A DNA stretch of 64,000 nt from a virus (lineage: Duplodnaviria; Caudoviricetes): IMG/VR virus record IMGVR_UViG_3300046694_000619; one strand, 5' to 3'. Below the pieces are notes generated by a model. It had not been told where the DNA came from, searched no databases, and saw nothing but the letters and a program-made list of their open reading frames with translations. The position numbers and the translations under genes were made by a program. Positions 8,149 through 33,995 of this stretch are shown piece by piece. Every line of letters begins with the position of its first letter. Position 1 is the first letter of the stretch.

Positions 8149-9984
8149 ATGGACCTCATTTCAAAACTGCTGGATAGCCAGGAGGCGTCGGCCGCAGCCT
8201 TCGGGTTTCTGGCCTACGCCTTGTTTATTGTGTGGCGCCGCGCGTCGGCGCGCTGGGTGAACTGGTTCCCGCCACTCGCCAAGATTGCTCGCCTCGCGCT
8301 CTATGCCTGCGCGCTCGTCGTCGGCTTCATCGGCTTTCGCGTACTCACCAACGCGGATGCGTCGCCTTACACCTGGCTGCTCGTCGTTGGTGGTGGCTGT
8401 ACGGGTCCCGTGCTGAACCGCGTGTCCCGCTTCCTGCGCCCGAAAGAAAAGATTCGCCGCGGCGCGCGCGTGGGCACGCCCGCTGACGTCAACAAGCAGA
8501 GTAGCAAGGAGATGCCGTCCAGCGACTTCAAGGACAGCTTCGAGATGGGCGGCGTGAAAATCCCGCGCTCGGCCGAACCGTATCACTTCTTCGTGGTCGG
8601 CTCGACGGGTACGGGTAAGTCGGTGGCCATCACCAACCTCATGGACGAAATCGAAGCGCGCGGCGACATCGCGCTCGTCGTCGACTCGGGTGGTGAGTTT
8701 TCTTCGCGCTACTTCAAGCCGGGCCGCGACCACATCCTGAATCCGTTCGACGACCGTTGCGCACCCTGGTCGCCTACTGCAGAGCTTGCGGGCCCTTGGG
8801 ACGCTGAAGCGCTCGCCAAGTCGATGGTGCCGGACGGTGTCGGAGACTCGAAGGAATGGAACGGCTACGCGCAGACGTTCGTGACGTCCGTGTTGCGTCG
8901 GCTCATGGCATTGAACCGCCTCTCCATCAAGGACCTGCTGTACTACGTCCAGGCCGCGCCCATCGAGGAGCTCACGCCATTGCTGGCCGGCACGTCGGCC
9001 GCCGCACAACTGGTTTCGGACCGGACTTTCGGGTCCATCCGGACGATTGCGACCAACTATCTGTCGACGTACGCGTATCTGTCGGACAACGACAACCCCT
9101 TCTCGGTGGCGAAGTTCATCCGTGCCGAAAAGCCGGGATTCCTGTTCTTCACGTACCGCGACGACCAGCTCGATTCGCTGCGCAACATGATTGCCTGCGC
9201 GCTTGACGTAGCGGCGCGGACCATCCTTGCGTTGCCTGCCAATAGTGAGCGACGGGTATGGCTCATCATCGACGAGTTCGCCTCAATCGGCAAAGTGCAG
9301 AGCATCGAGGCCGTGGCAACCAAGGCACGGAAGATGGGTGGTTGCCTGCTGATTGGTCTGCAGTCGGTTTCGCAGTTGCAGGAACGCTACGGCGAGAAGG
9401 GCGCGCAAACCATTCTGTCGTGCTTGAGCTCCTGGCTCGTGCTGCGCTGCTCCGACGCGGAGACATCTGAGTACGTCTCGAGGTACATCGGCGATACGGA
9501 AATCTCCCGCATGACCCGCTCGGAGTCTACTTCCGACACGGGCGGCGGCTCGGACTCACGCAACGAACAGATTCAGACCCAGCGCGCGGTGATGCCGGTG
9601 GAGCTGCAAAAACTTGTCAACCTGCACGGCTTCTTCAAGCTCGCCGGCGGCTACCCCATCTGCAACGTCAAGCTGAGCTACCCCAAGAAGCGCGAAGCAC
9701 GCTCCCAGAAATACGCCGAACGCGACTTCATCGCGAAGCCGATGCTCGACCTCATTCCGGCTACCACTCCGGCGAGCCCGGCTGGTGGAAGTGAAGGCGC
9801 GGGACAGGGCATGCAACCGCAGGCCCACGCCGAGGACGCGAACACGTCGGTCGCCGACACGCATCCGACCGCTGAAACCGAACAAGCCACCTTGCGGGTC
9901 CGCAAGAGCCCGCTCGAAGAGGGGCCTGCCGCCCTCGAAGAAATTCTGAATGAACTGGCAGAAGCGTTCGAAAACGATTTTTAA
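8149..9984 (+). CDS. type IV coupling protein (TrwB/TraD family)
   Basis: N-terminal TMs, Walker A GSTGTGKS, LNPFDDR..W, Walker B IIDEF, RK.GG...GLQS..QL..YG. Confidence 0.9.
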   Translation: MDLISKLLDSQEASAAAFGFLAYALFIVWRRASARWVNWFPPLAKIARLALYACALVVGFIGFRVLTNADASPYTWLLVVGGGCTGPVLNRVSRFLRPKEKIRRGARVGTPADVNKQSSKEMPSSDFKDSFEMGGVKIPRSAEPYHFFVVGSTGTGKSVAITNLMDEIEARGDIALVVDSGGEFSSRYFKPGRDHILNPFDDRCAPWSPTAELAGPWDAEALAKSMVPDGVGDSKEWNGYAQTFVTSVLRRLMALNRLSIKDLLYYVQAAPIEELTPLLAGTSAAAQLVSDRTFGSIRTIATNYLSTYAYLSDNDNPFSVAKFIRAEKPGFLFFTYRDDQLDSLRNMIACALDVAARTILALPANSERRVWLIIDEFASIGKVQSIEAVATKARKMGGCLLIGLQSVSQLQERYGEKGAQTILSCLSSWLVLRCSDAETSEYVSRYIGDTEISRMTRSESTSDTGGGSDSRNEQIQTQRAVMPVELQKLVNLHGFFKLAGGYPICNVKLSYPKKREARSQKYAERDFIAKPMLDLIPATTPASPAGGSEGAGQGMQPQAHAEDANTSVADTHPTAETEQATLRVRKSPLEEGPAALEEILNELAEAFENDF

Positions 9985-11367
9985 ATGAACTCCTTGCTCA
10001 TCCCAAATCCGAGCCAGCCCCACGATACTTACCGGATTCTGGTGGCAGACGATTCCCCGGTCCTCCGGGGCGTTTTCCGGTCCTTCAATACCGGTGAGGT
10101 GATTGTGCGCGACGTGGTTACAGACCGCCCGGCCCTCATTCGAGCCTTGAAGGATGCGCACGACCTTGACGCCGTGCTGTGTTCCGACCATCTGGCCGGC
10201 CGCTACGGCGGCGTCCTCGCCCTCAATGAGCTTCGCGAGAGCAAGCTGCTGCCACACGAAACCGCCTTCATCATGATGAGCGGTGACGCACGCCGGTCCA
10301 ACCTGATGGTGGACATCGAGGCGAAGCCCGACAGCATCCTGCTCAAGCCGTTTGCGCCCGCGACGCTTGTGCGCAAGCTGGCTCAAACGGTGCCGGTGCG
10401 TCGCGCGCTGGCCCATGTGCGCCGGCAGGCCGACGCTCAGAACTGGGGCGACGTCCTGCGCGTGACTAACCGGATGCTGGAGGAGGGCACGGACTTCCCG
10501 ACGGCTGTGCTATCGCTCAAACTGGAGGCGCTGAGCAAGCTCGGGCAGCACGATGTAGTCATGGCCCTGTACGAGACCATCCTGGAGAACTCGCCCAGGT
10601 CGGTCGCGCTCCTCGAGCCTATCGCGCGCTATGCCTACGACCAAGGCCAGCTGGTGAACGCAGAGAAGACGCTTGTGCGCATGTTGGCGCTGCAGCCGGC
10701 AAACTGCTTCGCAGCGGACCTGCTCGCAGACATCAAGCTCGAGCGCGGCGACTCGGTCGGGGCGCAGCTCCAGCTGCATCAGGCACTGCGGCACTCGCCT
10801 AATAGTATTGGGCGCCACCGTGCGCTCGGTCACATTGCGCTGCTCAACAACGACCTGGTTACGGCACAGCGCGCATATGCGGCCGCGATGCGACTCAATG
10901 CGGAAACATTCGGGCTCAGCGAGGTCGACGTCGCGAACGTTGTACGTGCTCTGTTGCTTAACGGCGACAACCTGCACGCCAATCGAGCCATCCGCGACGC
11001 ACGGCATGTATTGCGGGAAAACCTGGTGCTCGACGTGCTTCAGCAGCTCACCGAGGCTATGCTGTATCGCGAGTTTGACTCCTTCGGCCGGACGCAGCAA
11101 CGCGTACAGCAAGGCATCGCGCTCCTGGAGCGCACCATCCTGCCCGACAATGGCGTAATGCTTTTGGCAGCCACGGAAGCGAGCTTGATGGCGTCACTTG
11201 CACATCGCGGGTACCAGCTCAGTTCTGCGTTACTGAACAAGCGTTCGCATGTTAAGTTGCATCCTGCACAAAAAAGATGGGCCGAGAAGCTTCACAAGTG
11301 GTCCAGAGATGTGCACAATGAAGTTCTGCCGGAAGGCATGTTGCAGTATCAGCAGTACATGCAGTAA
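9985..11367 (+). CDS. response-regulator receiver plus TPR domain protein
   Basis: ILVADD...LLKPF receiver followed by TPR helices; ATG abuts the T4CP stop. Confidence 0.75.
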   Translation: MNSLLIPNPSQPHDTYRILVADDSPVLRGVFRSFNTGEVIVRDVVTDRPALIRALKDAHDLDAVLCSDHLAGRYGGVLALNELRESKLLPHETAFIMMSGDARRSNLMVDIEAKPDSILLKPFAPATLVRKLAQTVPVRRALAHVRRQADAQNWGDVLRVTNRMLEEGTDFPTAVLSLKLEALSKLGQHDVVMALYETILENSPRSVALLEPIARYAYDQGQLVNAEKTLVRMLALQPANCFAADLLADIKLERGDSVGAQLQLHQALRHSPNSIGRHRALGHIALLNNDLVTAQRAYAAAMRLNAETFGLSEVDVANVVRALLLNGDNLHANRAIRDARHVLRENLVLDVLQQLTEAMLYREFDSFGRTQQRVQQGIALLERTILPDNGVMLLAATEASLMASLAHRGYQLSSALLNKRSHVKLHPAQKRWAEKLHKWSRDVHNEVLPEGMLQYQQYMQ

Positions 11368-11448
11368 GTAACTCATTGATTTTGTTGGTGAGTTAAGTGT
11401 TAACACTTAGACGCGCGAAAATATTTTCAACTTTTTTGAATTTGAGTG

Positions 11449-11476
11449 TTGACATGCAGGTTGGTGGTGCTATACT
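11449..11476 (+). promoter_or_regulatory. sigma70 promoter of the tRNA operon (rrn P1-like)
   Basis: TTGACA-16 nt-TATACT with extended TG; AT-rich upstream. Confidence 0.85.
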
Positions 11477-11552
11477 AGCTCACATGGTCCTCATAACCGA
11501 GGACTGAAACCAGCAGTAAACCCAATTTACGAACATTTACGGAATCGAAATC

Positions 11553-11729
11553 ATGACACGCAGCCTCCGCCCAATCAACGCCGCCTCCACGCTTAATGCG
11601 TGGAATGGCGTTGTGCGCGTCGGATTCTCGCCGTCGAAAGATTGCGGTTTTAGCGCACTGAGCCTGGGCTTGGGTTATCAACCCGAGCATATTCAGGAAC
11701 AGGTGCATTCCGGGAGGAAGGGCAGATAA
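11553..11729 (+). CDS. putative attenuator leader peptide, 58 aa
   Basis: MTRSLRPINAASTLNAWNGVVRVGFSPSKDCGFSALSLGLGYQPEHIQEQVHSGRKGR; its 3' codons are complementary to the terminator 5' arm. Confidence 0.65.
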   Translation: MTRSLRPINAASTLNAWNGVVRVGFSPSKDCGFSALSLGLGYQPEHIQEQVHSGRKGR

Positions 11730-11758
11730 TATCGCCTAGACCTCAAGGTTCAAGACAG

Positions 11759-11798
11759 AACCCCCGGAATGCGCAAGCACCCGGGGGTTTTTGTTTTT
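11759..11798 (+). terminator. intrinsic terminator / attenuator hairpin
   Basis: AACCCCCGG..TGC GCAA GCA..CCGGGGG followed by TTTTTGTTTTT. Confidence 0.85.
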
Positions 11799-12046
11799 AA
11801 CCACCAAACAACGTGCCAAACGGAACGAGACCGTGGCCAGCACGATACCGGCAAAGCCGGATGGCAAATGGGCGGGGTCCCGGATTGAAACTGCGGAGGA
11901 AACGCAGGAGTAAAATGGGCATGCGGAGGGACGACCTCCGCACTTTTTCAAGGGTCTTGTCGACTTGTTAACCCGAGTAGGGTCCTTGAAAAAGCGATGA
12001 CGCAGTCGCTTGATTGCGAAATTTACGTTTTCATGTGATACATGAC

Positions 12047-12122
12047 GCCGGTTTAGCTCAGATGGAAGAGCTACTGTTTTGTAAACAGAGGGTCACGGGT
12101 TCGAATCCTGTAGCCGGCACCA
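12047..12122 (+). tRNA. tRNA-Thr(TGT)
   Basis: cloverleaf, loop TT TGT AA, CCA. Confidence 0.9.
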
Positions 12123-12133
12123 CCCATCACGCT

Positions 12134-12210
12134 CGGGGCATAGCGCAGTCTGGTAGCGCGTCTGCATGGGGTGCAGAAGGCCGCAGGTTCGAATCCTGCT
12201 GTCCCGACCA
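12134..12210 (+). tRNA. tRNA-Pro(GGG)
   Basis: cloverleaf, loop AT GGG GT, CCA. Confidence 0.92.
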
Positions 12211-12220
12211 ACGGTTCAAT

Positions 12221-12296
12221 GCGGGTGTAGCTCAGATGGTAGAGCAGAAGCCTTCCAAGCTTAGTGTCGCGAGTTCGATTCTCGTCGCCCGCTCCA
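12221..12296 (+). tRNA. tRNA-Gly(TCC)
   Basis: cloverleaf, CT TCC AA, U73, CCA. Confidence 0.93.
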
Positions 12297-12427
12297 GTTC
12301 CTTGTTGTCGCAGTCATGCGTTAAATGGCGTCTGCCGGTTGTCCTCTCTCCGGCGCGGTCACTGCGATAAGTGACGTGCTGGCAGGCAAGCTGCAAGCCG
12401 TGCTGACGGGAATCAGCGCGCAACGCT

Positions 12428-12511
12428 GCCCAGGTGGTGAAATGGAAGACACGCTGGTTTCAGAAGCCAGTGGCGAAAGCTGTGAGGGTTCGAGTCCCTC
12501 CCTGGGCACCA
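12428..12511 (+). tRNA. tRNA-Leu(CAG)
   Basis: class II cloverleaf, TT CAG AA, CCA. Confidence 0.92.
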
Positions 12512-12564
12512 TTAGTACAACTTACATGTAGTAGGTCGCAATCACTGCATGTTTTCGCTTCAAC

Positions 12565-12650
12565 GGGGATGTGGCTGAGTGGCCGAAGGCGGCGGACTGT
12601 AAATCCGTTCTGTAAAAAGCGCGATGGTTCGAATCCATCCGTCCCCACCA
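12565..12650 (+). tRNA. tRNA-Tyr(GTA)
   Basis: class II, CT GTA AA, CCA. Confidence 0.92.
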
Positions 12651-12665
12651 CGATTTTTTTGCAAT

Positions 12666-12742
12666 GCCTAGGTAGCTCAGCATGGTAGAGCGCCGTCTTG
12701 ATAAGGCGAGGGTCGCTGGTTCAAATCCAGCTCTAGGTACCA
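12666..12742 (+). tRNA. tRNA-Ile(GAT)
   Basis: TT GAT AA, CCA. Confidence 0.88.
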
Positions 12743-12752
12743 GTTTCACAAT

Positions 12753-12829
12753 TGGCCAGTAGCTCAGTTCGGTAGAGCGCTCCGCTGTTAACGGAAGGGT
12801 CACGGGTTCGAAGCCTGTCTGGCCAGCCA
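12753..12829 (+). tRNA. tRNA-Asn(GTT)
   Basis: U1-A72, CT GTT AA, G73, CCA. Confidence 0.9.
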
Positions 12830-12838
12830 ATTTACGAT

Positions 12839-12924
12839 GCACGTGTGGCCGAGCGGTTGAAGGCACTGGGCTGCAAACCCAGCGATGAAACTCCACGCCA
12901 GTTCGAATCTGGCCACGTGCTCCA
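12839..12924 (+). tRNA. tRNA-Cys(GCA) with long variable region
   Basis: CT GCA AA, U73, 14-nt variable region, CCA. Confidence 0.88.
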
Positions 12925-12951
12925 GTCGCTGTTGCTAGTTGTACGAATAAT

Positions 12952-13037
12952 GCACGCGTAGCCAAGAGGTCGAAGGCACAGGTCCGCAAAACCTACGACG
13001 CAAGTCCACGTCAGTTCGAATCTGACCGCGTGCTCCA
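12952..13037 (+). tRNA. tRNA-Cys(GCA) with long variable arm and C33
   Basis: CC GCA AA, variable hairpin GAC-GCAA-GTC, U73, CCA. Confidence 0.82.
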
Positions 13038-13060
13038 GTAGTTCCTGAAGTTTGCTTTGC

Positions 13061-13134
13061 TCCGGTGTAGCTCAGTTCGGTAGAGCGCCTGGCTGTTAAC
13101 CAGGATGTCGGTGGTTCGAACCCACTCTCCGGAG
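13061..13134 (+). tRNA. tRNA-Asn(GTT), CCA not encoded
   Basis: CT GTT AA; flanks TTTGCTTTGC/GCAAAGCAAA extend the acceptor stem. Confidence 0.88.
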
Positions 13135-13151
13135 CAAAGCAAAGTTTCAAT

Positions 13152-13228
13152 GCTCGGATAGCTCAGTTTGGTAGAGCGCCGGCCCGATAAGCCGTAGGTC
13201 GCTGGTTCAAATCCAGCTCCGAGTACCA
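13152..13228 (+). tRNA. tRNA-Ile(GAT) with C33
   Basis: CC GAT AA, CCA. Confidence 0.85.
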
Positions 13229-13236
13229 AGTTTTCT

Positions 13237-13312
13237 GCGGGAATAGCTCAGTTGGTAGAGCGCAACCTTGCCAAGGTTGAGGTCGCGAGTTCGAGACTCG
13301 TTTCCCGCTCCA
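13237..13312 (+). tRNA. tRNA-Gly(GCC)
   Basis: canonical proteobacterial-type sequence, CCA. Confidence 0.95.
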
Positions 13313-13323
13313 GGTTTGCCCTT

Positions 13324-13400
13324 GCAGGGGTAGCTCAGTTGGCTAGAGCATCTGCTTGCCATGCAGAAGGTCGCGAGTTCGAGTCTCGTTCCCTGCTCCA
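13324..13400 (+). tRNA. tRNA-Gly(GCC), divergent copy
   Basis: TT GCC AT, U73, CCA. Confidence 0.9.
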
Positions 13401-13408
13401 GTTTCATC

Positions 13409-13506
13409 GCCGAGATAGTCCGGTCGGTGCCGGTACGAATCCATAAGAGTTGTCGCTTGGTGACCCAGGCGCAGCCCACGCAGTTCGACTCTGCGTCTCG
13501 GCTCCA
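13409..13506 (+). ncRNA. YrlA-like Y RNA (tRNA mimic)
   Basis: Acceptor GCCGAGA/TCTCGGC + TCCA, T arm CGCAG TTCGACT CTGCG, long stem with GTACGAA / TTGTCGC resembling the Ro60-binding helix; no anticodon arm. Confidence 0.65.
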
Positions 13507-13515
13507 GCTTCATTT

Positions 13516-13592
13516 GCGGTAGTAGCTCAGCTGGTTAGAGCGCCGGCCTGTCGAGCCGGGGGTCACGGGTTCGAGTCCCGTCTGCCGCGCCA
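13516..13592 (+). tRNA. tRNA-Asp(GTC)
   Basis: CT GTC GA, G73, CCA. Confidence 0.92.
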
Positions 13593-13604
13593 GTTTCACC
13601 CGAT

Positions 13605-13680
13605 GTTCCGTTGGACTTTTGGTAAGGTCAGCAGGCTTTCAACCTGCGCAAGCTCGGTTCGAATCCGGCACGGAACTCCA
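13605..13680 (+). tRNA. tRNA-Glu(TTC), divergent
   Basis: CT TTC AA, U73, CCA. Confidence 0.82.
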
Positions 13681-13689
13681 GATTACATT

Positions 13690-13765
13690 GCTCCGTTAAC
13701 TCAGCGGCCAGAGTGCGTCCCTGTCCAGGACGAAGCCGAGGGTTCGACTCCCTCACGGGGCGCCA
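13690..13765 (+). tRNA. tRNA-Asp(GTC) with C37
   Basis: CT GTC CA, G73, CCA. Confidence 0.85.
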
Positions 13766-13775
13766 GTTTCACAGC

Positions 13776-13851
13776 AGGGGGTAAATCGATTGGAGCAGAT
13801 ACTTGGCTTTGACCCAAGGTGAGTCGGGTTCGATTCCCACACCCCCTTCCA
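13776..13851 (+). tRNA. tRNA-Gln(TTG), divergent D arm
   Basis: CTTGG CT TTG AC CCAAG, CCA. Confidence 0.75.
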
Positions 13852-13863
13852 AAAAATCACAAC

Positions 13864-13939
13864 GTGCGCTTCGTCTAGTGGCCCAGGACCCCGTCTAACA
13901 AGGCGGGAGACACAGGTTCGAATCCTGTAGCGCGCTCCA
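13864..13939 (+). tRNA. tRNA with Glu-like body and a non-7-nt anticodon loop (identity undetermined)
   Basis: D arm GTCTAGTGGCCCAGGAC; arm CCCGTCTAACAAGGCGGG folds to a 6- or 8-nt loop; CCA. Confidence 0.7.
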
Positions 13940-13959
13940 GTAACAACAAAGCACATTGC

Positions 13960-14032
13960 ATGACTGTGGCGCAATTGGCAGCGCAGCGGTCTCCAAAACC
14001 GAAGGTTGAGAGTTCGACCCTCTCCAGTCATG
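13960..14032 (+). tRNA. tRNA-Trp(CCA), 3' CCA not encoded
   Basis: CT CCA AA, G73; self-complementary flanks. Confidence 0.88.
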
Positions 14033-14051
14033 CAATGTGTTTTCCCCCTGT

Positions 14052-14128
14052 CTGGGCGTAATGTCAGTTGGTAGACGGCCGGCTTTGGAAGCCGGAGGCC
14101 GCAGGTTCGAGTCCTGTCGCCCAGACCA
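14052..14128 (+). tRNA. tRNA-Pro(TGG)
   Basis: C1-G72, TT TGG AA, CCA. Confidence 0.88.
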
Positions 14129-14140
14129 AATTTTTTCAAC

Positions 14141-14217
14141 ACTCGGGTCGTCTAGCTGGCCTAGGACACCGCCCTTTCAAGGCGGGCACGCGGGTTCGAA
14201 TCCCGTCCCGAGTACCA
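14141..14217 (+). tRNA. tRNA-Glu(TTC)
   Basis: CT TTC AA, Glu-type D arm, CCA. Confidence 0.9.
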
Positions 14218-14233
14218 AATTTCGAGGACAGTC

Positions 14234-14779
14234 ATGTTGACGTGCGTGAATTATAGGCCCGGCTTCGTGGCCAATCCGAATCCGATTTTCGATGCGCTGT
14301 GGTCCGAGCTGGACTGGGAGCGCAGAGGCTCGACGCCCAGGCGTGAGTATTACTGCAACGACGTCGGCGTGCCGTATGTCTATGGCCGCGGCGCCGGCGT
14401 ACGGGAATACCTGCCCAAGGCCATGCATCCCGCCCTGGCTGCCCTGAAAGGCGAGACGGAAGCCGCACTGAGCACCAAGTTCGAAGTGGCCTTTCTGAAC
14501 GGCTACGAGGACGCCCGCGACAGCTTGGGCTGGCACGCGGATGACAGCGAGTCGATGGATGACAATCGTCCCATCGCCATCCTGACGCTGGGCGCGGAAC
14601 GCGAAATCTGGTTCTGCCGCAACACCGACCGCTCCGACATCACGAAGCTGGTGCTGGGCAACGGCAGCCTGTGCGTCATGGCGCCGGGCATGCAAGATAC
14701 CCACCTGCACAGAATCCCCAAGGCGGGGTTCGAGTGCGGCCCGCGTATCAGTATTACATTCAGGGGTTACGTAGCGTAG
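14234..14779 (+). CDS. alkB: AlkB-family 2OG-Fe(II) dioxygenase (ALKBH2/3-like)
   Basis: LNGYEDARDSLGWHADD (HxD), H.IPK, RISITFR. Confidence 0.88.
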   Translation: MLTCVNYRPGFVANPNPIFDALWSELDWERRGSTPRREYYCNDVGVPYVYGRGAGVREYLPKAMHPALAALKGETEAALSTKFEVAFLNGYEDARDSLGWHADDSESMDDNRPIAILTLGAEREIWFCRNTDRSDITKLVLGNGSLCVMAPGMQDTHLHRIPKAGFECGPRISITFRGYVA

Positions 14780-14900
14780 TCCTGAAGGGGTTGCTTCATG
14801 CTGCCCTGGCGCCAGGTGTAGACCATCTGGCGCCGTCTCTACAAGTTGTCGTAGTGCCTATTGCATGGTATATTAAACTCCCCATCATAAGGAGTTTCCC

Positions 14901-15089
14901 ATGAATTACTCGACGGCTCTGTCGTTTGCTGTTCCGGTCTTGATGCTCATTGCAACCGTGAATCTGGTTGCGTACTGGGCTCGTAACGCAAAGAAGGTAG
15001 CTGACGCCCGGCTGCGTGCGCATTACGATGCGCACCCCGATAAGGCTGAAGCTCGTGCGCTGATGCGCGCAGCAGGCTACAACGTCTGA
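14901..15089 (+). CDS. small membrane protein
   Basis: AAGGAG RBS, N-terminal hydrophobic helix. Confidence 0.6.
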   Translation: MNYSTALSFAVPVLMLIATVNLVAYWARNAKKVADARLRAHYDAHPDKAEARALMRAAGYNV

Positions 15090-15147
15090 GCGTAACGCCG
15101 GCGTTGTGCTCCGTCCCAGGTCGGCCAACACCTGGAAAGAACACCTT

Positions 15148-15223
15148 GGGGGTGTAACTCAGTCGGTAGAGTGCCTGACTCTTAATCAGGAAGTCGCGAG
15201 TTCGAGCCTCGCCGCCCCCACCA
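15148..15223 (+). tRNA. tRNA-Lys(CTT)
   Basis: CT CTT AA, CCA. Confidence 0.93.
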
Positions 15224-15231
15224 CGATTACT

Positions 15232-15322
15232 GGAGAGCAAACCTGGCAGGGCTGGGCGCCGATTCGAAATCGGTTGGAGTGGCGAAAGCTGCTTGGGCTT
15301 CGAGTGCACCTGCTCTCCGCCA
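15232..15322 (+). tRNA. 8/4-type (allo-tRNA-like) tRNA-Ser(CGA)
   Basis: 8-bp acceptor GGAGAGCA/TGCTCTCC, short bulged T stem, long V arm, TT CGA AA, G73, CCA. Confidence 0.82.
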
Positions 15323-15328
15323 GACAAT

Positions 15329-15406
15329 AGGACCGTAGCTCAGTTGGACCAGAGCGCCGCGCTACGAACGCGGAGGTCGGGGATTCGAATTCCTCCGGTC
15401 CTACCA
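15329..15406 (+). tRNA. tRNA-Arg(ACG)
   Basis: CT ACG AA, CCA. Confidence 0.9.
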
Positions 15407-15417
15407 TTTCATTTCTT

Positions 15418-15493
15418 GCCTCGGTAGCTCAGCTGGTAGAGCACTGCACTGAAGATGCAGGTGTCGCTGGTTCGATTCCAGCTCGAGGCACCA
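15418..15493 (+). tRNA. tRNA-Phe(GAA)
   Basis: CT GAA GA, CCA. Confidence 0.92.
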
Positions 15494-15510
15494 CCTTCCG
15501 GAGCTTGTCT

Positions 15511-15837
15511 ATGGTCGCGTATCCCGTGAACTACACAGACGAGCAGCTTGGAAAAGCCTACGCGGCCGGGATGCTGCGAAAGACCAAGCTTGAGGATGGC
15601 CGCTATTACAGAGGCGAATGTCGAAACGCGAGCGTCGCGCGCTGGTGCGCCGAACTGCAAGCATTCGTGCACTGGACCTTCACGATGGGCGGCTGGCATC
15701 TGGACCTCATCCATCATCCCGACGACGAGAAACGGTATGACGTGTTTCTCGCGTTCGAACGCGTTGAACCTTCCGCAGACGACGTCATCGCTGACGCCGA
15801 ATACGAAGGGTTCGTCGCGATGTATCGCAAACAATGA
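15511..15837 (+). CDS. hypothetical protein (phage-like)
   Basis: GGAG RBS; LEDGRYYRGECRNASVARW. Confidence 0.7.
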   Translation: MVAYPVNYTDEQLGKAYAAGMLRKTKLEDGRYYRGECRNASVARWCAELQAFVHWTFTMGGWHLDLIHHPDDEKRYDVFLAFERVEPSADDVIADAEYEGFVAMYRKQ

Positions 15838-15848
15838 GACTGCAGCGG

Positions 15849-15925
15849 GGTGGCCGTCGCCAAGTGGTTAAGGCCCGCGGCTGTGACCCGCGCATGCATG
15901 GGTTCAAATCCCATCGGTCACCCCA
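15849..15925 (+). tRNA. tRNA-His(GTG)
   Basis: G-1:C73, CT GTG AC, CCA. Confidence 0.92.
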
Positions 15926-15988
15926 CTGCAGTCTCGGACAAAACGTTTTTTCAGTCAGGTTTTTCAATCAACCAACAGGAGCTTCGAT

Positions 15989-16240
15989 ATGCATCGAAAA
16001 CCGAAGCTGGCGCCGCGTAACCCGTTCGTGGCGTCCAGTCTGTTTCGCAAAGCGGGTACGCATGACAAGCCGCACAAGGCCACGCGCCGTGCGGACAAGA
16101 TGGACTTACGGCGTGTAGCTCAACTGGCAGAGCAAAGGGCTTTTACCCCTGAGGTTCTGGGTTCAACTCCCAGTGCGCCGACCATCCGAGACATCAAACA
16201 CATACCGATGTGCAGCAGCATTGCGCAGCTATCTGTTTGA
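15989..16240 (+). CDS. small basic protein whose frame runs through tRNA-Lys
   Basis: AGGAG RBS; 40 K/R/H-rich codons, then the tRNA begins exactly at codon 41. Confidence 0.6.
   Translation: MHRKPKLAPRNPFVASSLFRKAGTHDKPHKATRRADKMDLRRVAQLAEQRAFTPEVLGSTPSAPTIRDIKHIPMCSSIAQLSV
16109..16184 (+). tRNA. tRNA-Lys(TTT)
   Basis: CT TTT AC, CCA. Confidence 0.85.
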
Positions 16241-16268
16241 GGTTTCTCGTGTCGCAAGACACGCGATA

Positions 16269-16404
16269 GGTTTTGAATCGGCGGCGTGGATGGACACGCA
16301 GCAATCCGGACAAAGGCGAATACGACTAGCCAAGCCGGATTGTGTGGAAGTTGGCCAGTCGTGCTAGCACCAGCGGGTGTCGAAACCTGCACGTTTCAAA
16401 ACCA
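16269..16404 (+). ncRNA. tRNA-shell RNA with an internal pseudoknot
   Basis: Closing helix GGTTTTGAA/TTCAAAACC, GCGTG GATGGA CACGC hairpin, T-like hairpin, two crossing helices. Confidence 0.6.
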
Positions 16405-16407
16405 CAT

Positions 16408-16481
16408 GGGGGTGTAGCTCTAAGGTAGAGCGCCTGCTTTGCAAGCAGAGGGTCCGAATTCGATTTTCGGCGCCTCCACCA
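16408..16481 (+). tRNA. tRNA-Ala(TGC)
   Basis: G3:U70, TT TGC AA, CCA. Confidence 0.88.
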
Positions 16482-16489
16482 ATCTTCCT

Positions 16490-16619
16490 GGTGACGTAGC
16501 TCAGTCGGTAGAGCGCGGAATCCTGGGCCGGCTTCGCGTGGCGCTCCTTCGCTGCGCGGTGACTAATCGGCTCTTGGTTTGTTCCGAGGTCGGATGTTCG
16601 AACCATCCCGTCATCGCCA
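16490..16619 (+). ncRNA. tRNA-like RNA with the anticodon loop replaced by a ~60-nt hairpin
   Basis: Normal acceptor, D and T arms and CCA; CGGAA/TTCCG stem encloses a long insert. Confidence 0.75.
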
Positions 16620-16631
16620 AACACGTTGTAT

Positions 16632-16722
16632 GGAGAGTAAACCTGGCAGGGCCGGGCGCCGGTTGGAAGCCGGTCGGAGCGGCGAAAGCTGCTTGGGCTT
16701 CGAGTGCACCTACTCTCCGCCA
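16632..16722 (+). tRNA. 8/4-type tRNA-Ser(GGA)
   Basis: 8-bp acceptor; near-copy of 15232 with loop TT GGA AG. Confidence 0.82.
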
Positions 16723-16731
16723 TTCATTTTT

Positions 16732-16808
16732 GCTTCGGTAGCTCAGTCTGGTAGAGCGCTGCGTTGAAGGCGCAGGCGTCGTTGGTTCAATTCCAACCCG
16801 AAGCACCA
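16732..16808 (+). tRNA. tRNA-Phe(GAA)
   Basis: TT GAA GG, CCA. Confidence 0.9.
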
Positions 16809-16829
16809 CATACAGGAGGTTTTCTTCTC

Positions 16830-17027
16830 ATGGGAACGGTAAGCCTTCACGGCCTGCGTGTGCTACGCCTTGAAAGGGCGTTGCGTGCGAGAGGCGTAAA
16901 AGATGTGAAGCTGGTGGTCAACCCATCCGCTCACGTATCAAGAGACGCACTCACAGAGAGCGTTTGCCGGGTGCTCGAGGCCTACCTTGCGGGGAAGGTC
17001 ACGGCGCTACCGCGCGGCAGCTTCTGA
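16830..17027 (+). CDS. hypothetical protein
   Basis: AGGAGG RBS, 65 aa. Confidence 0.6.
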   Translation: MGTVSLHGLRVLRLERALRARGVKDVKLVVNPSAHVSRDALTESVCRVLEAYLAGKVTALPRGSF

Positions 17028-17234
17028 GTGCGTTTCTTGAGGTCATAAACCGGGGGCAAGATAGGGCCATCGCGCGAACCCGTCACGCGTCGAGTAGCTG
17101 GCGTAAGCAGCTAATACTTCTTCGAAACTCCTTCGGGGTGTGCTCCGCTCATGCGAGTCTGTGCACTCCAAAGCAGTTTTGATTGTCCGGCCGTCTTCTC
17201 TGGCAGCCAGGGCTGTGCGCTTGCGCACGACCAT

Positions 17235-17311
17235 CTCCGTGTAGCTCAGTCTGATAGAGCGCCTCGTTCGGGACGAGGAGGTCGCAGGTTTGAACCCTGT
17301 CTCGGAGACCA
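17235..17311 (+). tRNA. tRNA-Pro(CGG)
   Basis: TT CGG GA, CCA. Confidence 0.87.
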
Positions 17312-17380
17312 TTTTTGAGGGAAGCGTCGCGTGTCGACGCATGCGGCGCCCCAGCGCGTAATCTGGGGCAACGATTTCTT

Positions 17381-17470
17381 GGAGGGTGAACCAGACAGGG
17401 TTTGGGCTCGCCTGCTAAGCGAGGCGTTTGGCGAAAGCTGAATTCGGTTCGATACCGACTCCCTCCTCCA
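17381..17470 (+). tRNA. 8/4-type tRNA-Ser(GCT)
   Basis: 8-bp acceptor with one mismatch, 4-bp T stem TCGG/CCGA, long V arm, CT GCT AA. Confidence 0.82.
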
Positions 17471-17479
17471 GGTTTCAAT

Positions 17480-17554
17480 GCTCGTGTAGCGCAGTGGTAG
17501 CGCACCGCTTTCACACAGCGGGGGTCGCTGGTTCGATGCCAGCCTCGAGCACCA
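17480..17554 (+). tRNA. tRNA-Val(CAC)
   Basis: TT CAC AC, CCA. Confidence 0.9.
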
Positions 17555-17562
17555 GTTCAATT

Positions 17563-18303
17563 TCACCTCAGGAGCGACATGACGGATTTGTCAGCCCAGA
17601 GTTGCGCACACAAGGCTGCGCGGTCGGGGCGGACCGTGGAGTCCGACGGTGCCGCAGATTCGATTCGCTCCCGCAGCGCTGCCATTCGTTCGCGCACCAG
17701 TGCTTCGTCGGCAGGAACGTAGCGACCCTCAGCATCCGCCAGGGGCAGCAGGGCAATGGGCTCATCACCAAACAGGTCGGCAGCGATGTCCGCGACAAAG
17801 CGCTCGTTGCCGTCGTCAACCTCGACCCAATAGTGAGCGTGGCAGTTGCCCGCAGCATCGAAAAAGCCGGTGACTTCGCCGTCACCGGCACGAATGCAGG
17901 AGCTCATCTTCGGCAGGGATTTCTTGACCTGCAGGTCGGCGAGATAGGCGGCGAACGCACAGCTCCCAGCGACCTGACCCAAGAATCCAGATTCGCACGC
18001 GCGGTCGAGAGCGCCGATGGTCTTTGTCAGCGCCGCGTGCAACGCTATCGAACTCGCCTGGCGCCCTTCGCGAATGGTCGCGCCCGCGGCATCAATCTGA
18101 TTGCCAATCTCGCGGGAAACCTCTCGCGCGTCGAACGAATCCTTGGCAGCGAATTTCACCTTGACTGTCAAATCCTCGCCTACCGGGTACCAGCGCTCTT
18201 GAAATCGGATACGCGCGCCTGCATAGAGCGGGGCGCGGACGTGTGCGGTAAAAAGCCACTCTCCGTCAACGCGTGTGGTTGTCGAGGTTACGAAGTACGA
18301 CAT
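17563..18303 (-). CDS. hypothetical protein interrupting the tRNA array
   Basis: AGGAG RBS; GSC...HYWV...DIAADLF resembles a transglutaminase/papain-like Cys-His-Asp arrangement. Confidence 0.7.
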   Translation of the reverse strand: MSYFVTSTTTRVDGEWLFTAHVRAPLYAGARIRFQERWYPVGEDLTVKVKFAAKDSFDAREVSREIGNQIDAAGATIREGRQASSIALHAALTKTIGALDRACESGFLGQVAGSCAFAAYLADLQVKKSLPKMSSCIRAGDGEVTGFFDAAGNCHAHYWVEVDDGNERFVADIAADLFGDEPIALLPLADAEGRYVPADEALVRERMAALRERIESAAPSDSTVRPDRAALCAQLWADKSVMSLLR

Positions 18304-18376
18304 GATTTCTCCTGAAACATGTCCGTAGTATACAAAGTAATTTGCGTAGCGACAACTACGCAGAGAGTTGATGAAT

Positions 18377-18452
18377 GGGTACCTAGCTCAGTTGGAAGAG
18401 CATCGCCTCGACACGGCGAAGGTCGGCGGTTCGAACCCGTCGGTACCTACCA
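18377..18452 (+). tRNA. tRNA-Val(GAC) with C33
   Basis: TC GAC AC, CCA. Confidence 0.88.
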
Positions 18453-18460
18453 GTTTTGAT

Positions 18461-18539
18461 AGGGGAGTGGCGCCGAGCGGTCTAAGGCACCGGGTTCTGA
18501 CCCCGGGTTTCGCAGGTTCGAATCCTGCCTCCTCTTCCA
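18461..18539 (+). tRNA. tRNA-Gln(CTG)
   Basis: TT CTG AC, CCA. Confidence 0.85.
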
Positions 18540-18546
18540 GCTTTAC

Positions 18547-18625
18547 AGGCCCGTAGCTCAGGTGGATTGAGAGCGCGACACTACGAATGTCGAGGTCGGG
18601 GGTTCAAGTCCCTCCGGGTCTACCA
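18547..18625 (+). tRNA. tRNA-Arg(ACG)
   Basis: CT ACG AA, CCA. Confidence 0.9.
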
Positions 18626-18636
18626 TTAAAGCATAG

Positions 18637-18665
18637 TTGCCATTAAGCATTTTTAATGATATAAT
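18637..18665 (+). promoter_or_regulatory. internal sigma70 promoter
   Basis: TTGCCA-17-TATAAT with extended TG. Confidence 0.7.
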
Positions 18666-18689
18666 GCAAAGCATCAGTAGTGCACACCT

Positions 18690-18776
18690 GCCCAGGTGGC
18701 GGAATTGGTAGACGCGCAGCGTTGAGGTCGCTGTGTCCGAAAGGACGTGGGGGTTCGAGTCCCCCCTTGGGCACCA
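18690..18776 (+). tRNA. tRNA-Leu(GAG)
   Basis: class II, TT GAG GT, CCA. Confidence 0.93.
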
Positions 18777-18792
18777 TTTTTTGAGGTATGTC

Positions 18793-18993
18793 ATGGCCAA
18801 CGATGAAGTCGTCGTCGAGCTGAACTTCAATGCGGCACCGCCGCCGAAGTGCAAGCGATGCGGCCGCGACAAGGGAAGTCACAAAGCAGTGACGCTGCAT
18901 TGTCCGATTGGACGCGGCAATTTCCCTTCTTTCGCGATGGCCAAGCTATACGAGCCCCGCACGCCGCGCTTAAAGCGGTCAAAAGCGGGCTGA
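18793..18993 (+). CDS. small Cys/His-containing protein
   Basis: GAGG RBS; CKRCG...H......C. Confidence 0.55.
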   Translation: MANDEVVVELNFNAAPPPKCKRCGRDKGSHKAVTLHCPIGRGNFPSFAMAKLYEPRTPRLKRSKAG

Positions 18994-19004
18994 AGTAGTA
19001 CAAC

Positions 19005-19089
19005 GCTCCGAATGGCGGAATTGGTTAGACGCCTTGGTCGTACCAGGGACCGCAAGGTCGTGTGGGTTCGAATCCCGCTTCGGGCACCA
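19005..19089 (+). ncRNA. tRNA-Leu-like RNA lacking an anticodon loop
   Basis: Leu D arm, V arm, A73 and CCA present; anticodon arm is CTTGGT-CGT-ACCAGG. Confidence 0.75.
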
Positions 19090-19256
19090 GATTCATCTCT
19101 TTGTATGGCACTTGCGGCTATACCTGGGGATGATGTCGAGCCTTCTGGCTGTTAGACCTGCGCGACATAAAAGGAACTGCAGGCGAGTCATCCGCACTTT
19201 CAGTAGGAGTCGGCGGCAGGGGGAGTGCCTGCATCCTTTCAACAAGGTTTTTGAAC

Positions 19257-19532
19257 ATGCGCTCGTTGGTTTTCGCTTTTTTGGTTTCGTGCAGCCTCCC
19301 GCTCGCCGTCCTTGGATGCAGCAACGGGAATGCGGTCACGTCCCAGCACATTGCTTTGGCATCGGACAAGTGCGCGGCAAACGGTGGCCTGAAGCAGGTC
19401 GAGCGGGCCGACGCCACTCGCATGAGCGAGAGCTGCGGCTACAAGTGCAGTCGCTACACCGGTCAGATAGAGTACGAGGCCCAGTTCTCTTGCAAGAACG
19501 GCGCGCACTTCGACCTGACCTGGCAAGAATAA
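19257..19532 (+). CDS. putative lipoprotein
   Basis: Hydrophobic N-terminus with VLGC lipobox-like motif. Confidence 0.6.
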   Translation: MRSLVFAFLVSCSLPLAVLGCSNGNAVTSQHIALASDKCAANGGLKQVERADATRMSESCGYKCSRYTGQIEYEAQFSCKNGAHFDLTWQE

Positions 19533-19540
19533 GGAGCAGC

Positions 19541-19774
19541 ATGAGCGAGCGCAAGCAGGAGTGGCAGGCGTACCGCGTGCGCCGGTTCTTTCGGACGCGG
19601 CACTATGTGGCGTGTTGGATAAACGGTTATGAGTTCCTGTATGCCCATGCCGGCAAGCCTCGCTACTTCGCAGAAGCGGCTGACGCAATAAAGTTTGCTG
19701 AGTATCTGAGTCTGCCTGAAGCGGAGCGGCAGCTCATTGACTATGCGGAAGCCTACGGCGCGTTCTACGCGTAA
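19541..19774 (+). CDS. hypothetical protein
   Basis: AAGGAG RBS, MSERKQEW. Confidence 0.6.
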   Translation: MSERKQEWQAYRVRRFFRTRHYVACWINGYEFLYAHAGKPRYFAEAADAIKFAEYLSLPEAERQLIDYAEAYGAFYA

Positions 19775-19814
19775 GAGCGTTAAGCCTTCGACCGCAAGCG
19801 CACTAAAGATTCAA

Positions 19815-19900
19815 GCCCTTTTGGTGGAATGGAAGACACAGGAGATTCAAAATTTCCCGCCTTAAAAAGCGTGCCGGTTCGAGTCCGGCATAGGGCACCA
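19815..19900 (+). tRNA. tRNA-Leu(CAA)
   Basis: class II, TT CAA AA, CCA. Confidence 0.9.
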
Positions 19901-19910
19901 AGTTTAATAT

Positions 19911-19988
19911 CGGGGATTAATGTCAGTCCGGTAGACGGCCTGCTCCGGAAGCAGGAGGCCGCAGGTTCAAATCCTGCATCCCCGACCA
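19911..19988 (+). tRNA. tRNA-Pro(CGG) with C33 and A37
   Basis: TC CGG AA, CCA. Confidence 0.82.
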
Positions 19989-20147
19989 AATTTCGACCGC
20001 AGACTACGCGGTATCTCGCCGTCGTCCTGGGAAATCGCATCCGCGAAAGTACAATCGGCAGGGCTAGGAGCAGCGATGAAATAGCCGCCATCGCGCTCGA
20101 CGCAAGAGGCCGGGCTGGTGGAATGCCAGTCGCGAATGCAACACGAT

Positions 20148-20223
20148 GCGTCCGTAACTCAGTGGAAAGAGTGCCACCCTCCGAAGGTGGAAGCCGGCCG
20201 TTCGATTCGGTCCGGACGCGCCA
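20148..20223 (+). tRNA. tRNA-Arg(CCG)
   Basis: CT CCG AA, CCA. Confidence 0.9.
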
Positions 20224-20471
20224 GAACTCTGGCTCAGCCAAGATTTCGCTGGGCTGGTACGAGCACCAACCTCTCGGCCCCGGTCATCTATCGGGAAAGT
20301 ACTGGGAGGTCGTCTGCCCCGACGTGAGTTAAGTGGGCATGGCGCTCCATAGGAGCCCGCTGGGAAGCCATACCGCAGGTCGCCCCTGTGGCCAAAATCC
20401 CGGCACACAAGAGCTGTACGACAGAAGGGGCCGTTCGATTCATCGGACGGCCCCTTTTTGCATTCCGCGCT

Positions 20472-20559
20472 GCCTGCGTGGTGAAATTGGTAGACACACC
20501 TGGCTTAAGACCAGACGCTGCTAGTCAGCATAAGGGTTCGAGGCCCTTCGCAGGCACCA
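20472..20559 (+). tRNA. tRNA-Leu(TAA)
   Basis: class II, CT TAA GA, CCA. Confidence 0.9.
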
Positions 20560-31406: not shown

Positions 31407-31434
31407 TTGACACGCGCGCTGTTGGTGCTATACT
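31407..31434 (+). promoter_or_regulatory. rrn-like sigma70 promoter
   Basis: TTGACA-16-TATACT; GGTGCTATACT identical to the 11449 promoter. Confidence 0.85.
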
Positions 31435-33219: not shown

Positions 33220-33295
33220 GGCGGGGTGGCGCAGTTGGTAGCGCACGGGGCTCATAACCCTGGGGTCGATGGTTCGAATCCATCTCCCGCAACCA
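33220..33295 (+). tRNA. tRNA-fMet(CAT)
   Basis: 1:72 mismatch, three G-C pairs in the anticodon stem, CCA. Confidence 0.88.
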
Positions 33296-33304
33296 GTTTT
33301 TGCA

Positions 33305-33475
33305 GTGGGAAGGAGCAGACCGCAGCCTATGCGTGCGGGATGACAGGCCCCGCTCGGACGCATGAAGTTGGGTGCGGAGAGTCGACGGACTGAGCATAAA
33401 CGGAGTCGAGGGTAAGGCCGCGGACGTGTGATGTAGGGCACGAGAGCGGTTCCGAGGTTACGACACCGGCCCACA
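33305..33475 (+). ncRNA. structured RNA, family A copy 2
   Basis: AGGAGCAGA...AAACGGAGT..GGGTA...ACACCGGCC as in 26888-27086. Confidence 0.5.
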
Positions 33476-33526
33476 GCAGATTCACCATTTTCAAGAGCGG
33501 CACTTGTGCGGCTCGAGTAGTTCAAT

Positions 33527-33604
33527 GGCGGGGTAGCTCAGCCTGGTAGAGCGACAGCCTCATAAGCTGAATGTCGTTGGTTCGAATCCAACCCACCGCA
33601 ACCA
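33527..33604 (+). tRNA. tRNA-Met(CAT) with initiator-like acceptor end
   Basis: CT CAT AA, ...CCGCAACCA end, bulged acceptor. Confidence 0.82.
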
Positions 33605-33917
33605 GTTACCCGGGTGTCCTGGCCCGTAATTTACCAGGCTCGGCACTCCTGCCGGCCTACCGTTGGCTATGGAGCGGAACCTGCGGTATATCGGGGGCAA
33701 CCTCGGTAAGCCATCCCGAAAGGGATTCCGACAGGAGTAACGCAGGCAGCTTGGTGTGAGCTGAAACGCAAAGGATAGCGTATCTGTTGAGCCTCCCGGG
33801 GAGGCTCTTCGTGAGCGCCGCACATCTGACTGGTAAAGCGCCCACGTGCCAGCTGTTGGTAGCAGCGTGGCACACCGATTTTCAGGAGTGGCTTTCGAGC
33901 GACTCCAGCAGCTCGAT

Positions 33918-33995
33918 AGCGGGGTAGAGCAGTCCGGTAGCTCGTCGGCCTCATAAGCCGAAGGTCATGGGTTCAAATCCCATCCGCCGCAACCA
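33918..33995 (+). tRNA. tRNA-Met(CAT), fMet-like D arm
   Basis: GAGCAGTCCGGTAGCTC, CT CAT AA, bulged acceptor, CCA. Confidence 0.85.

Follow-up and report, generated by a model that had tools for sequence, protein, structure and literature searches.

Within a 64,000-nucleotide (nt) stretch of DNA (IMG/VR virus record IMGVR_UViG_3300046694_000619, Caudoviricetes), referred to here in its whole length as the window, gene and tRNA calls show part of a large conjugative element in which a response regulator gene is followed downstream by 52 co-oriented tRNA genes (12047-37331). The region of interest is the 680 nt separating the regulator gene from the first tRNA. It contains a promoter, a short open reading frame (ORF), an intrinsic terminator whose 5' arm is also complementary to the end of that ORF, and a further conserved RNA. 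Taking comparative and thermodynamic evidence together, we consider it a candidate translation-controlled (ribosome-mediated) transcription attenuator heading a mobile tRNA array, a reading for which we judge the case for and the case against to be about evenly balanced. The features on which the argument turns are as follows.

11449-11476, plus strand: sigma-70 promoter, TTGACA, 16-nt spacer and extended -10 TGcTATACT (11 of 12 matches, with TG)
11553-11729, plus strand: leader ORF of 58 codons, ATG at 11553 and TAA at 11727-11729, with 20 amino acids and 43 distinct codons
11703-11714, plus strand: 5' strand of the putative antiterminator (codons 51-54), pairing with 11763-11774 over 12 bp with one G-U
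11714-11744, plus strand: hairpin with the stop codon in its loop, between the two antiterminator strands
11761-11767/11781-11787, plus strand: 7-bp G+C stem of intrinsic terminator 1, with an inner 3-bp stem and a GCAA loop, followed by TTTTTGTTTTT (U-tract 11788-11798)
11801-11950, plus strand: module B, a conserved structured RNA found by nhmmer in all loci and ending in terminator 2
11922-11942, plus strand: stem of terminator 2, then CTTTTTC (terminator scan)
12047-20559, plus strand: first tRNA block, the candidate regulated genes, with 41 tRNA genes for 19 amino acids and no Met (ARAGORN and Rfam)

In order to place the unit in a comparative framework, copies were gathered from contigs carrying homologs of the regulator protein (91% down to ~50% identity) and by scans with a profile of the leader peptide. 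The unit was found in 20 distinct DNA copies, on Burkholderia contigs (B. ubonensis and B. vietnamiensis, 430-640 kb) and in soil and rhizosphere metagenomes, and the window stretch itself is present in DNA sequencing runs from rhizosphere and soil metagenomes. The order of features is constant and runs from coupling protein and regulator through promoter, ORF, terminator and module B with its own terminator to a syntenic tRNA array. The gene beside it diverges more than the unit does, with nucleotide identities (unit vs gene) of 0.87 vs 0.67 in a B. ubonensis locus (L004) and 0.70 vs 0.59 in a second related locus (L010). Four loci (L006, L012, L023 and L024) carry tandem ORF-terminator units behind one promoter, the second copy beginning ~40 nt after the first terminator, and the sole promoter-like site in these loci is the upstream one.

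The initial annotation, made from the letters of the window, had placed a strong promoter at 11449-11476, a 58-codon ORF with a weak ribosome-binding site at 11553-11729, a terminator at 11759-11798 and a 12-bp pairing with one G-U between 11703-11714 and 11763-11774, and had counted all 20 amino acids and 43 distinct codons in the leader. Each of these features is present. The terminator stem occupies 11761-11787 with its U-tract running to 11798, the ribosome-binding site is indeed weak, consisting of a Shine-Dalgarno-like GGAA (11541-11544, plus strand) 8 nt before the ATG, and a recount bears out the amino acids and codons, with a diversity beyond that of the window's long ORFs. The alignment of homologous loci that the annotation had suggested likewise bears it out, with leader, terminator and pairing kept in the 20 copies and the ORF under coding selection, and all 34 family peptides keep the 20 amino acids. 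The family mean is 38.7 distinct codons.

Terminator 1 is nearly invariant in the 20 copies, its loop varying between GCAA and GAAA (GNRA), and it lies between the leader ORF and the first tRNA (12047) as the terminator of an attenuator does; a simple terminator scan passed over it only because of a loop longer than the 8 nt allowed. The 3' strand of the putative antiterminator, 11763-11774, is made up of the 5' arm and inner stem of this terminator, so that the two structures are mutually exclusive. The unusual inner stem and internal loop, neither of which an ordinary terminator needs, are precisely the part that is complementary to the ORF. The duplex between ORF and terminator arm is predicted at -27.3 kcal/mol compared with -18.7±2.7 kcal/mol in 1000 dinucleotide shuffles (p=0.005). 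Across the 20 sequences pairing is possible in 93% of cells, with a 9-bp core paired in all but one cell, and the three variable pairs stay standard pairs (U-G/C-G, C-G/U-G and U-A/U-G). The hairpin enclosing the stop codon folds in the window and has an equivalent in the homologs built from different stem sequences.

Folding of the window RNA puts the two alternatives within about 2 kcal/mol of each other (-65.9 kcal/mol for the terminator and -63.7 kcal/mol for the forced antiterminator), and over 20 units the difference between them ranges from -8.9 to +6.0 kcal/mol. For nascent RNA ending before the terminator 3' arm the antiterminator is predicted with a probability of at least 0.95 in 15 of the 20 units. 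The influence of a ribosome was modelled by setting a 29-nt footprint as unpairable under equilibrium folding, with two rows for second tandem copies left out as invalid. For the window this mask model gives a terminator probability of at least 0.97 when the ribosome is at codons 48-58 or at the stop, and an antiterminator probability above 0.96 when it is stalled at codons 31-43, most of codons 44-46 likewise favouring the antiterminator; ribosome-free window RNA is 83% terminator. The minimum free energy (MFE) structure of the full-length window RNA pairs 11653-11660 with 11699-11706, a candidate anti-antiterminator, and this helix is not kept by RNAalifold.

Every one of the 20 DNA copies has the ORF, at a length of 55-60 codons, with an unchanged ATG context and with its stop in the loop of the equivalent hairpin. 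Its indels are all multiples of 3 with the sole exception of a 1-nt deletion in one locus (L008), ten codons before the end. In the part of the ORF upstream of the pairing segment the pairwise ratio of nonsynonymous to synonymous substitution rates (dN/dS) is mostly 0.2-0.6. Entropy by codon position is 0.46/0.55/0.72 over the whole ORF and 0.43/0.49/0.85 over codons 25-48, and in-frame stops across the copies number 0 in frame 1 and 28 and 51 in the other two sense frames. Judged by in-frame indels, dN/dS and third-position variability the ORF is evolving as a coding sequence, and these signatures across the 20 copies point to a short translated leader ORF such as attenuators carry. Most homologs have the GGAA element, 7-10 nt ahead of the ATG. 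The final ~10 codons are without periodicity (entropy 0.59/0.46/0.63), and in L008 the frameshift falls just 5' of the equivalent of 11703, yet the nucleotide sequence is retained; for both reasons it appears to be the RNA sequence, not the peptide, that is conserved in this last part of the ORF.

Opposite the leader runs an antisense ORF of 77 codons (11475-11708, minus strand), and 19 of the 20 copies have no stop in the codon-aligned antisense frame. We did not retain it as coding. In G+C-rich genes the antisense frame aligned with the codons commonly stays open, which is the most likely origin of this ORF, and because variability is highest at sense third positions the sense frame is taken to be the coding one. 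A covarying hairpin within the leader ORF (CCACGC/GCGTGG, 11587-11603, plus strand) was identified by RNAalifold, two of its pairs changing from C-G to A-U in 4 sequences each, and the helix enclosing it covaries too.

The peptide family is tiny, with 7 clusters among 1.8 billion representatives. No amino acid is missing from any of its 34 distinct peptides (55-62 residues, down to 38% identity), of which 20 were derived from the DNA copies, 12 more came from databases and two are distant relatives at 38-41% identity; a full set of 20 is seen in 3.8% of comparable random 58-residue stretches. Part of this retention is ordinary conservation, because Trp, Phe, Tyr, Gln and Pro occupy invariant columns and Asp and, mostly, His nearly invariant ones. 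Cys, Ile, Lys and Thr shift columns between lineages, yet are never lost. A column shuffle that keeps column composition gives p=0.0036 for 7 lineages less than 65% identical, the distant members included. Simulation along a maximum-likelihood tree rooted on the window's peptide, with BLOSUM62-derived exchange rates and smoothed site rates, gives p=0.0002-0.0003 with generic or family amino-acid frequencies, an outcome dominated by Cys. We rely more on a tree simulation with site-specific residue profiles, the most conservative null since columns are limited to the observed residues at their observed frequencies, in which p=0.003 and ~11 of 33 tips are expected to miss an amino acid. The tests are model-dependent, and on their basis the full amino-acid alphabet of the leader is probably selected. 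At the level of codons, the 43 distinct codons of the window ORF compare with 31.9±3.4 when 58-codon stretches are drawn from the long ORFs of the window, a sample of 100,000 in which 43 was never reached. Rare codons are not clearly enriched in the leader (third-position G+C content 0.58-0.72, vs 0.72 in genes). The run of codons for a single amino acid that marks known attenuators was not seen, each amino acid occurring a few times or, as with Trp, Tyr, Asp and Cys, once.

The start of the transcript and the route from there to the tRNA genes involve a number of smaller elements.

11395-11408: perfect 14-nt palindrome AAGTGTTAACACTT upstream of the promoter, a possible regulator site
11417-11446, plus strand: A+T-rich tract (24 of 30 bases) in the position of an UP element, beginning with the palindrome GAAAATATTTTC
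11486-11505, plus strand: 5'-terminal stem-loop of the transcript (MFE fold)

In the alignment of related loci the promoter hexamers and the bases just 5' of the -10 are almost invariant, even where the neighbouring protein is only ~50% identical, the A/T tract upstream of the -35 is conserved and the 11486-11505 stem is retained despite changes on both sides. The promoter looks to be of the stable-RNA type because of the A+T tract in the UP-element position and the 14-nt palindrome upstream; that the tract is an UP element is suggested by analogy with the known architecture of stable-RNA promoters. In six loci, scans that detect the sigma-70 consensus only, run at a relaxed threshold, brought up no such promoter after terminator 1 and ahead of the first tRNA; for this reason the array appears to be transcribed from the 11449 promoter, with read-through of the terminator apparently obligatory.

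Read-through would lead into module B, which is more conserved than the leader, with 78-97% identity where the neighbouring gene has 58-90%. It contains helices with 3 covarying pairs (RNAalifold), long invariant stretches and a variable hairpin missing in some loci, and could be the product under regulation, a small RNA or a signal for processive antitermination. At 11944-11993 in the window the U-tract of terminator 2 is able to pair with an A-tract ~40 nt downstream (CTTTTTCAAGG / CCTTGAAAAAG), and the equivalent stem is maintained with different sequences in other loci (L001, L004, L006, L008 and L010). Immediately ahead of the first tRNA (tRNA-Thr) there is a third hairpin, with a T-run behind it. 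The array then begins in the order Thr-Pro-Gly-Leu, shared by five related loci (Thr-Pro-Leu in L010). Met tRNA is also absent from the array stretch sampled in five relatives, and in the window all four tRNAs with a CAT anticodon (33220-34672) come after a GOLLD RNA, behind a second copy of the promoter at 31407. There is a parallel here with the leader, in that the leader peptides nearly lack internal Met and the first tRNA block covers exactly the other 19 amino acids.

We picture the operation of the switch as follows. The very strong stable-RNA-type promoter at 11449 would start a transcript whose first 320 nt comprise the translated leader ORF and the intrinsic terminator, and in the nascent RNA the antiterminator (11703-11714/11763-11774) is predicted to form first. 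A ribosome that has kept up, and by the time 11763-11787 leaves the polymerase is translating the final ~11 codons or has come to the stop, would cover the antiterminator strand; the terminator would form and transcription would end near 11798. Were the ribosome lagging or stalled earlier, the antiterminator would persist and RNA polymerase would continue into module B and the tRNA genes. As the leader keeps the 19 elongator-read amino acids and a wide codon set, a shortage of almost any charged tRNA, or a general failure of elongation, would be expected to raise expression of the array, giving a feedback on translational capacity. The sequence analysis shows the anatomy and its conservation, the coding selection, the retention of the 20 amino acids, the two folds of similar energy and the lack of another promoter; we infer the control of termination by translation, the direction of the logic and the physiological role. 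A more tentative extension, which we think somewhat likelier to be wrong than right, is that the leader acts as a pan-aminoacyl-tRNA sensor in which a ribosome lagging through tRNA shortage, a drug or a toxin opens an array supplying the same 19 amino acids. If so it would form a self-contained homeostat of translational capacity on a conjugative element, possibly one that counters tRNA-cleaving defences or codon mismatch in new hosts.

A number of observations weigh against an attenuator of this kind. The Shine-Dalgarno-like element is weak, and it is absent in two of the copies (L016 and L017). The antiterminator helix is without two-sided compensatory changes in the 20 sequences because both of its strands are nearly invariant, and for these reasons it is to be regarded as a conserved pairing potential and not as a proven structure. 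Under equilibrium folding the terminator is still preferred (P about 0.8) when a ribosome stalls at codons 12-19, 24 or 27, and for most of the remaining codons from 7 to 30 the outcome is intermediate, so that at equilibrium only part of the ORF would act as a trigger. In a kinetic race the antiterminator would already have formed if the ribosome came late, a delay at any codon would then matter, and such a race would fit selection for the full alphabet. The ribosome-free state ranges from 0% to 97% antiterminator among the homologs. The significance of the retention of all 20 amino acids depends on the null model chosen, the column shuffle giving p=0.07 for the first 7 lineage representatives (less than 70% identical) before the two distant members were added, and an internal Met codon is absent from 30 of the 34 leaders, in which Met is the initiator only. 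The positionally conserved residues of the peptide (W17, F33 and G41-Y-Q-P44) are unneeded by a pure codon sensor and would fit a functional peptide. Terminator 2 and the third hairpin-U element sit between the switch and the tRNAs, and because they intervene, polymerase that passes 11798 may still fail to reach the array. The RNA data, which tell nothing about 3' ends, consist of metatranscriptome contigs from two runs, one of 151 nt inside the ORF (11509-11656) and one of 205 nt spanning 11760-11964 across the U-tract, which were not counted as evidence; both have a depth of 2.6-4.1 and are possibly library DNA, and ends, strand and level are not readable from them.

These points also bear on the initial annotation, which had described a translation-stress attenuator gating a complete tRNA set. 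Its core idea is supported comparatively, and the read-through into the array from the leader promoter that it proposed agrees with the finding of no other sigma-70-like promoter before the tRNAs and with tandem units sharing one promoter. Gating of a complete set was overstated, given that an extra terminator and a hairpin precede the first tRNA, that the first block, the only part of the array open to gating, covers 19 amino acids and that the Met tRNAs lie behind the 31407 promoter. Covariation in the pairing, which it had named as a check, was not found. A ribosome at the stop was held to mask the antiterminator, and here the model does give the terminator, but such a ribosome covers only ~3 nt of 11703-11714 and the masking occurs while codons 48-58 are being read. 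Likewise, the opening of the switch by a stall on almost any codon is predicted for codons 31-43 and most of codons 44-46, and does not extend to every codon in the equilibrium model.

The main rival to attenuation is that the locus is a stand-alone small-protein gene whose basic peptide of 57-58 amino acids is functional in its own right, for example by binding RNA or protein for the conjugative element. That the ORF is complementary to the terminator would then be incidental or serve mRNA stability, and the tRNAs would use a promoter unrecognised by our scans, which see only sigma-70 consensus sites. Such a gene would account for the coding selection and the conserved residues, has its own promoter and a canonical terminator, and is annotated by gene callers in every locus. 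We think it unlikely nonetheless. AlphaFold predicts no fold for the peptide (pLDDT 57, no secondary structure) and there is no Pfam family for it. The last ~10 codons are without periodicity and are frameshifted in L008 with the nucleotides kept, and the conserved inner stem of the terminator exactly matches the part complementary to the ORF. Retention of all 20 amino acids beyond the null, the near-isoenergetic alternative fold and the promoterless second copy after the terminator would all be left unexplained by a small-protein gene.

There are two further rival explanations. In one, attenuation would depend on the nascent peptide, with the C-terminal half (GF-AP-LG-GYQPEH) forming an arrest sequence for one signal, like TnaC or SecM, and the amino-acid diversity a by-product. 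The most conserved block (residues 32-46) does coincide with codons 31-46, where stalling most favours the antiterminator, and synonymous variation within GYQPE implies selection on the amino acids themselves. However, such an arrest peptide does not predict that all 20 amino acids are retained while Cys, Ile, Lys and Thr move position, and there is no likeness to known arrest peptides, no specific search having been made beyond Pfam; we regard it as improbable. In the other, the ~320-nt transcript would be a structured regulatory or dual-function small RNA acting in trans or in processing or stability, the frame being open through G+C content and slow evolution. The fold of the whole transcript (z=-7.3), the covarying hairpins inside the ORF and a nucleotide conservation above that of the neighbouring gene, untranslated parts included, are in keeping with this, and the antisense frame, free of stops in 19 of 20 copies, shows that an open frame by itself is only weakly indicative of coding here. 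Set against it are the in-frame indels, the greatest variability at sense third positions, a dN/dS below 1, the conserved positions of the ATG and stop, the 28 and 51 stops in the other sense frames and the lack of an Rfam family, and we consider a small RNA of this type highly improbable.

Besides the elements of the proposed attenuator, the surroundings of the unit hold a number of features on the same element, of which the following have defined positions (the last in five of the relatives).

8149-9984: TrwB/TraD-type coupling protein
9985-11367: receiver-domain/TPR protein (the response regulator)
32237-32706: GOLLD RNA (Rfam)
L001 12068-12613, L004 12684-13229, L006 11963-12508, L008 12476-13021 and L010 12552-13097: AlkB-like gene

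Gyrase/topoisomerase subunits, thioredoxins and a glutamate-synthase-domain protein lie beside the coupling-protein gene in the upstream 8 kb of five related loci (L004, L006, L008, L010 and L012; contigs of 430-640 kb). The element looks to belong to a family of very large conjugative megaplasmids or integrative and conjugative elements (ICE) with no member in the plasmid collection searched. A DNA search of plasmid and phage collections with the 667-nt region gave no match, a protein search of the plasmid collection with the neighbouring regulator gave only weak, unrelated matches, and nothing was found when a genome collection was scanned with the regulator protein. A 24-residue match to the peptide profile in a Nitrospirales metagenome-assembled genome (L020) was treated as spurious, the locus being without a leader unit by nhmmer. 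No Rfam family matched the leader unit or module B; the best hits scored below threshold (rdlD 22.4 bits against a threshold of 50 and the best leader family, His_leader, 17.1 bits against 49, E-values 0.05-3.4), and the T-box riboswitch model went unmatched whether Rfam was scanned at the gathering threshold or at E<=10.

Upstream of the promoter, the second perfect palindrome GAAAATATTTTC occupies 11417-11428, just before the promoter itself, and the GTTAA(C) core of the 11395-11408 palindrome is found again in related loci. Both palindromes are possible operator sites, and the adjacent gene encodes the receiver-domain/TPR protein. An antisense promoter-like site at 11753-11726 was dismissed as it is not conserved in the homologs. 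The second promoter copy (31407-31434; TTGACA, 16 nt, TGCTATACT) has 1 mismatch over the pattern, and the palindrome core GTTAAC and an A/T tract lie upstream of it; it is without a leader ORF, stands ~800 nt before the GOLLD match and is probably the promoter of GOLLD and of the tRNAs that follow. Two loci alone (L004 10030-10170 and L008 9990-10120) have an additional conserved element, ~130 nt long, after terminator 2 and ahead of the first tRNA, that of L004 being without an Rfam match. Within the array of the window ARAGORN identified two tRNA-like genes with four-base anticodons in 8-nt anticodon loops (13864-13939, aaca, and 19006-19089, acca), with equivalents in L001 and L004. A gene for a 181-residue 2OG-Fe(II) oxygenase (AlkB-like, PF13532) stands at a conserved place inside the tRNA array of the relatives, and its presence there could suggest repair of methylated tRNA.

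Each known leader-peptide attenuator senses one amino acid or a few and governs biosynthetic genes, and stable-RNA operons are thought to be controlled at the promoter. If the locus described here works as a translation-controlled attenuator, it would be the first attenuator shown to regulate tRNA genes and the first built to read overall decoding capacity. It would also suggest how large mobile tRNA arrays, whose function is debated, are silenced while not required and how they are switched on in a mismatched or tRNA-depleted host, and the element could serve as a compact genetic reporter of general translation stress.

Arrays of tRNA genes have been described on Variovorax megaplasmids and other elements (PMC7313664). 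The array in the window is like those of Variovorax megaplasmids, the Acidithiobacillus ICE, mycobacterial arrays and phages in being long, co-oriented and inclusive of all 20 amino acids, and in the literature on mobile tRNA arrays we found none described with a leader ORF or attenuator upstream. The proposed switch would share with E. coli toiL the logic of sensing translation failure in general; toiL is described as a multipurpose upstream ORF before topAI-yjhQ at which ribosomes stall at various positions under different stresses and remodel the downstream RNA (10.1101/682021). The two differ in that toiL exposes a ribosome-binding site and so prevents Rho-dependent termination in the next ORF, whereas here there is an intrinsic terminator and the tRNAs are untranslated; toiL is also not reported to hold all amino acids.

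In the antibiotic-inducible leaders of the erm, cat, vmlR and bmrCD type a stalled ribosome sets the choice between terminator and antiterminator, by means of drug-specific arrest motifs and in front of resistance genes. A short leader ORF and a fold set by stalling would be shared with these systems, the differences here being the full amino-acid alphabet and the tRNA genes. The attenuators of amino-acid operons (trp, his, leu, thr, ilv and pheA) provide the nearest architectural parallel, with a short ORF near the promoter, an intrinsic terminator ahead of the genes under control, an antiterminator built in part from a terminator strand and a ribosome position predicted to pick the fold. Their leaders are shorter than the 55-62 codons found here and carry a codon run for one amino acid where this family has none. 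In the present unit the antiterminator strand lies inside the ORF, and a strong conserved 1:2 anti-antiterminator appears to be lacking, so that ribosome-free nascent RNA is predicted to read through and not to super-attenuate. The genes under control would differ also, being biosynthetic enzymes in the amino-acid operons and tRNAs on a mobile element here, and the locus would represent a variation on a known mechanism, leader-peptide attenuation, with a new class of target, the tRNA genes.

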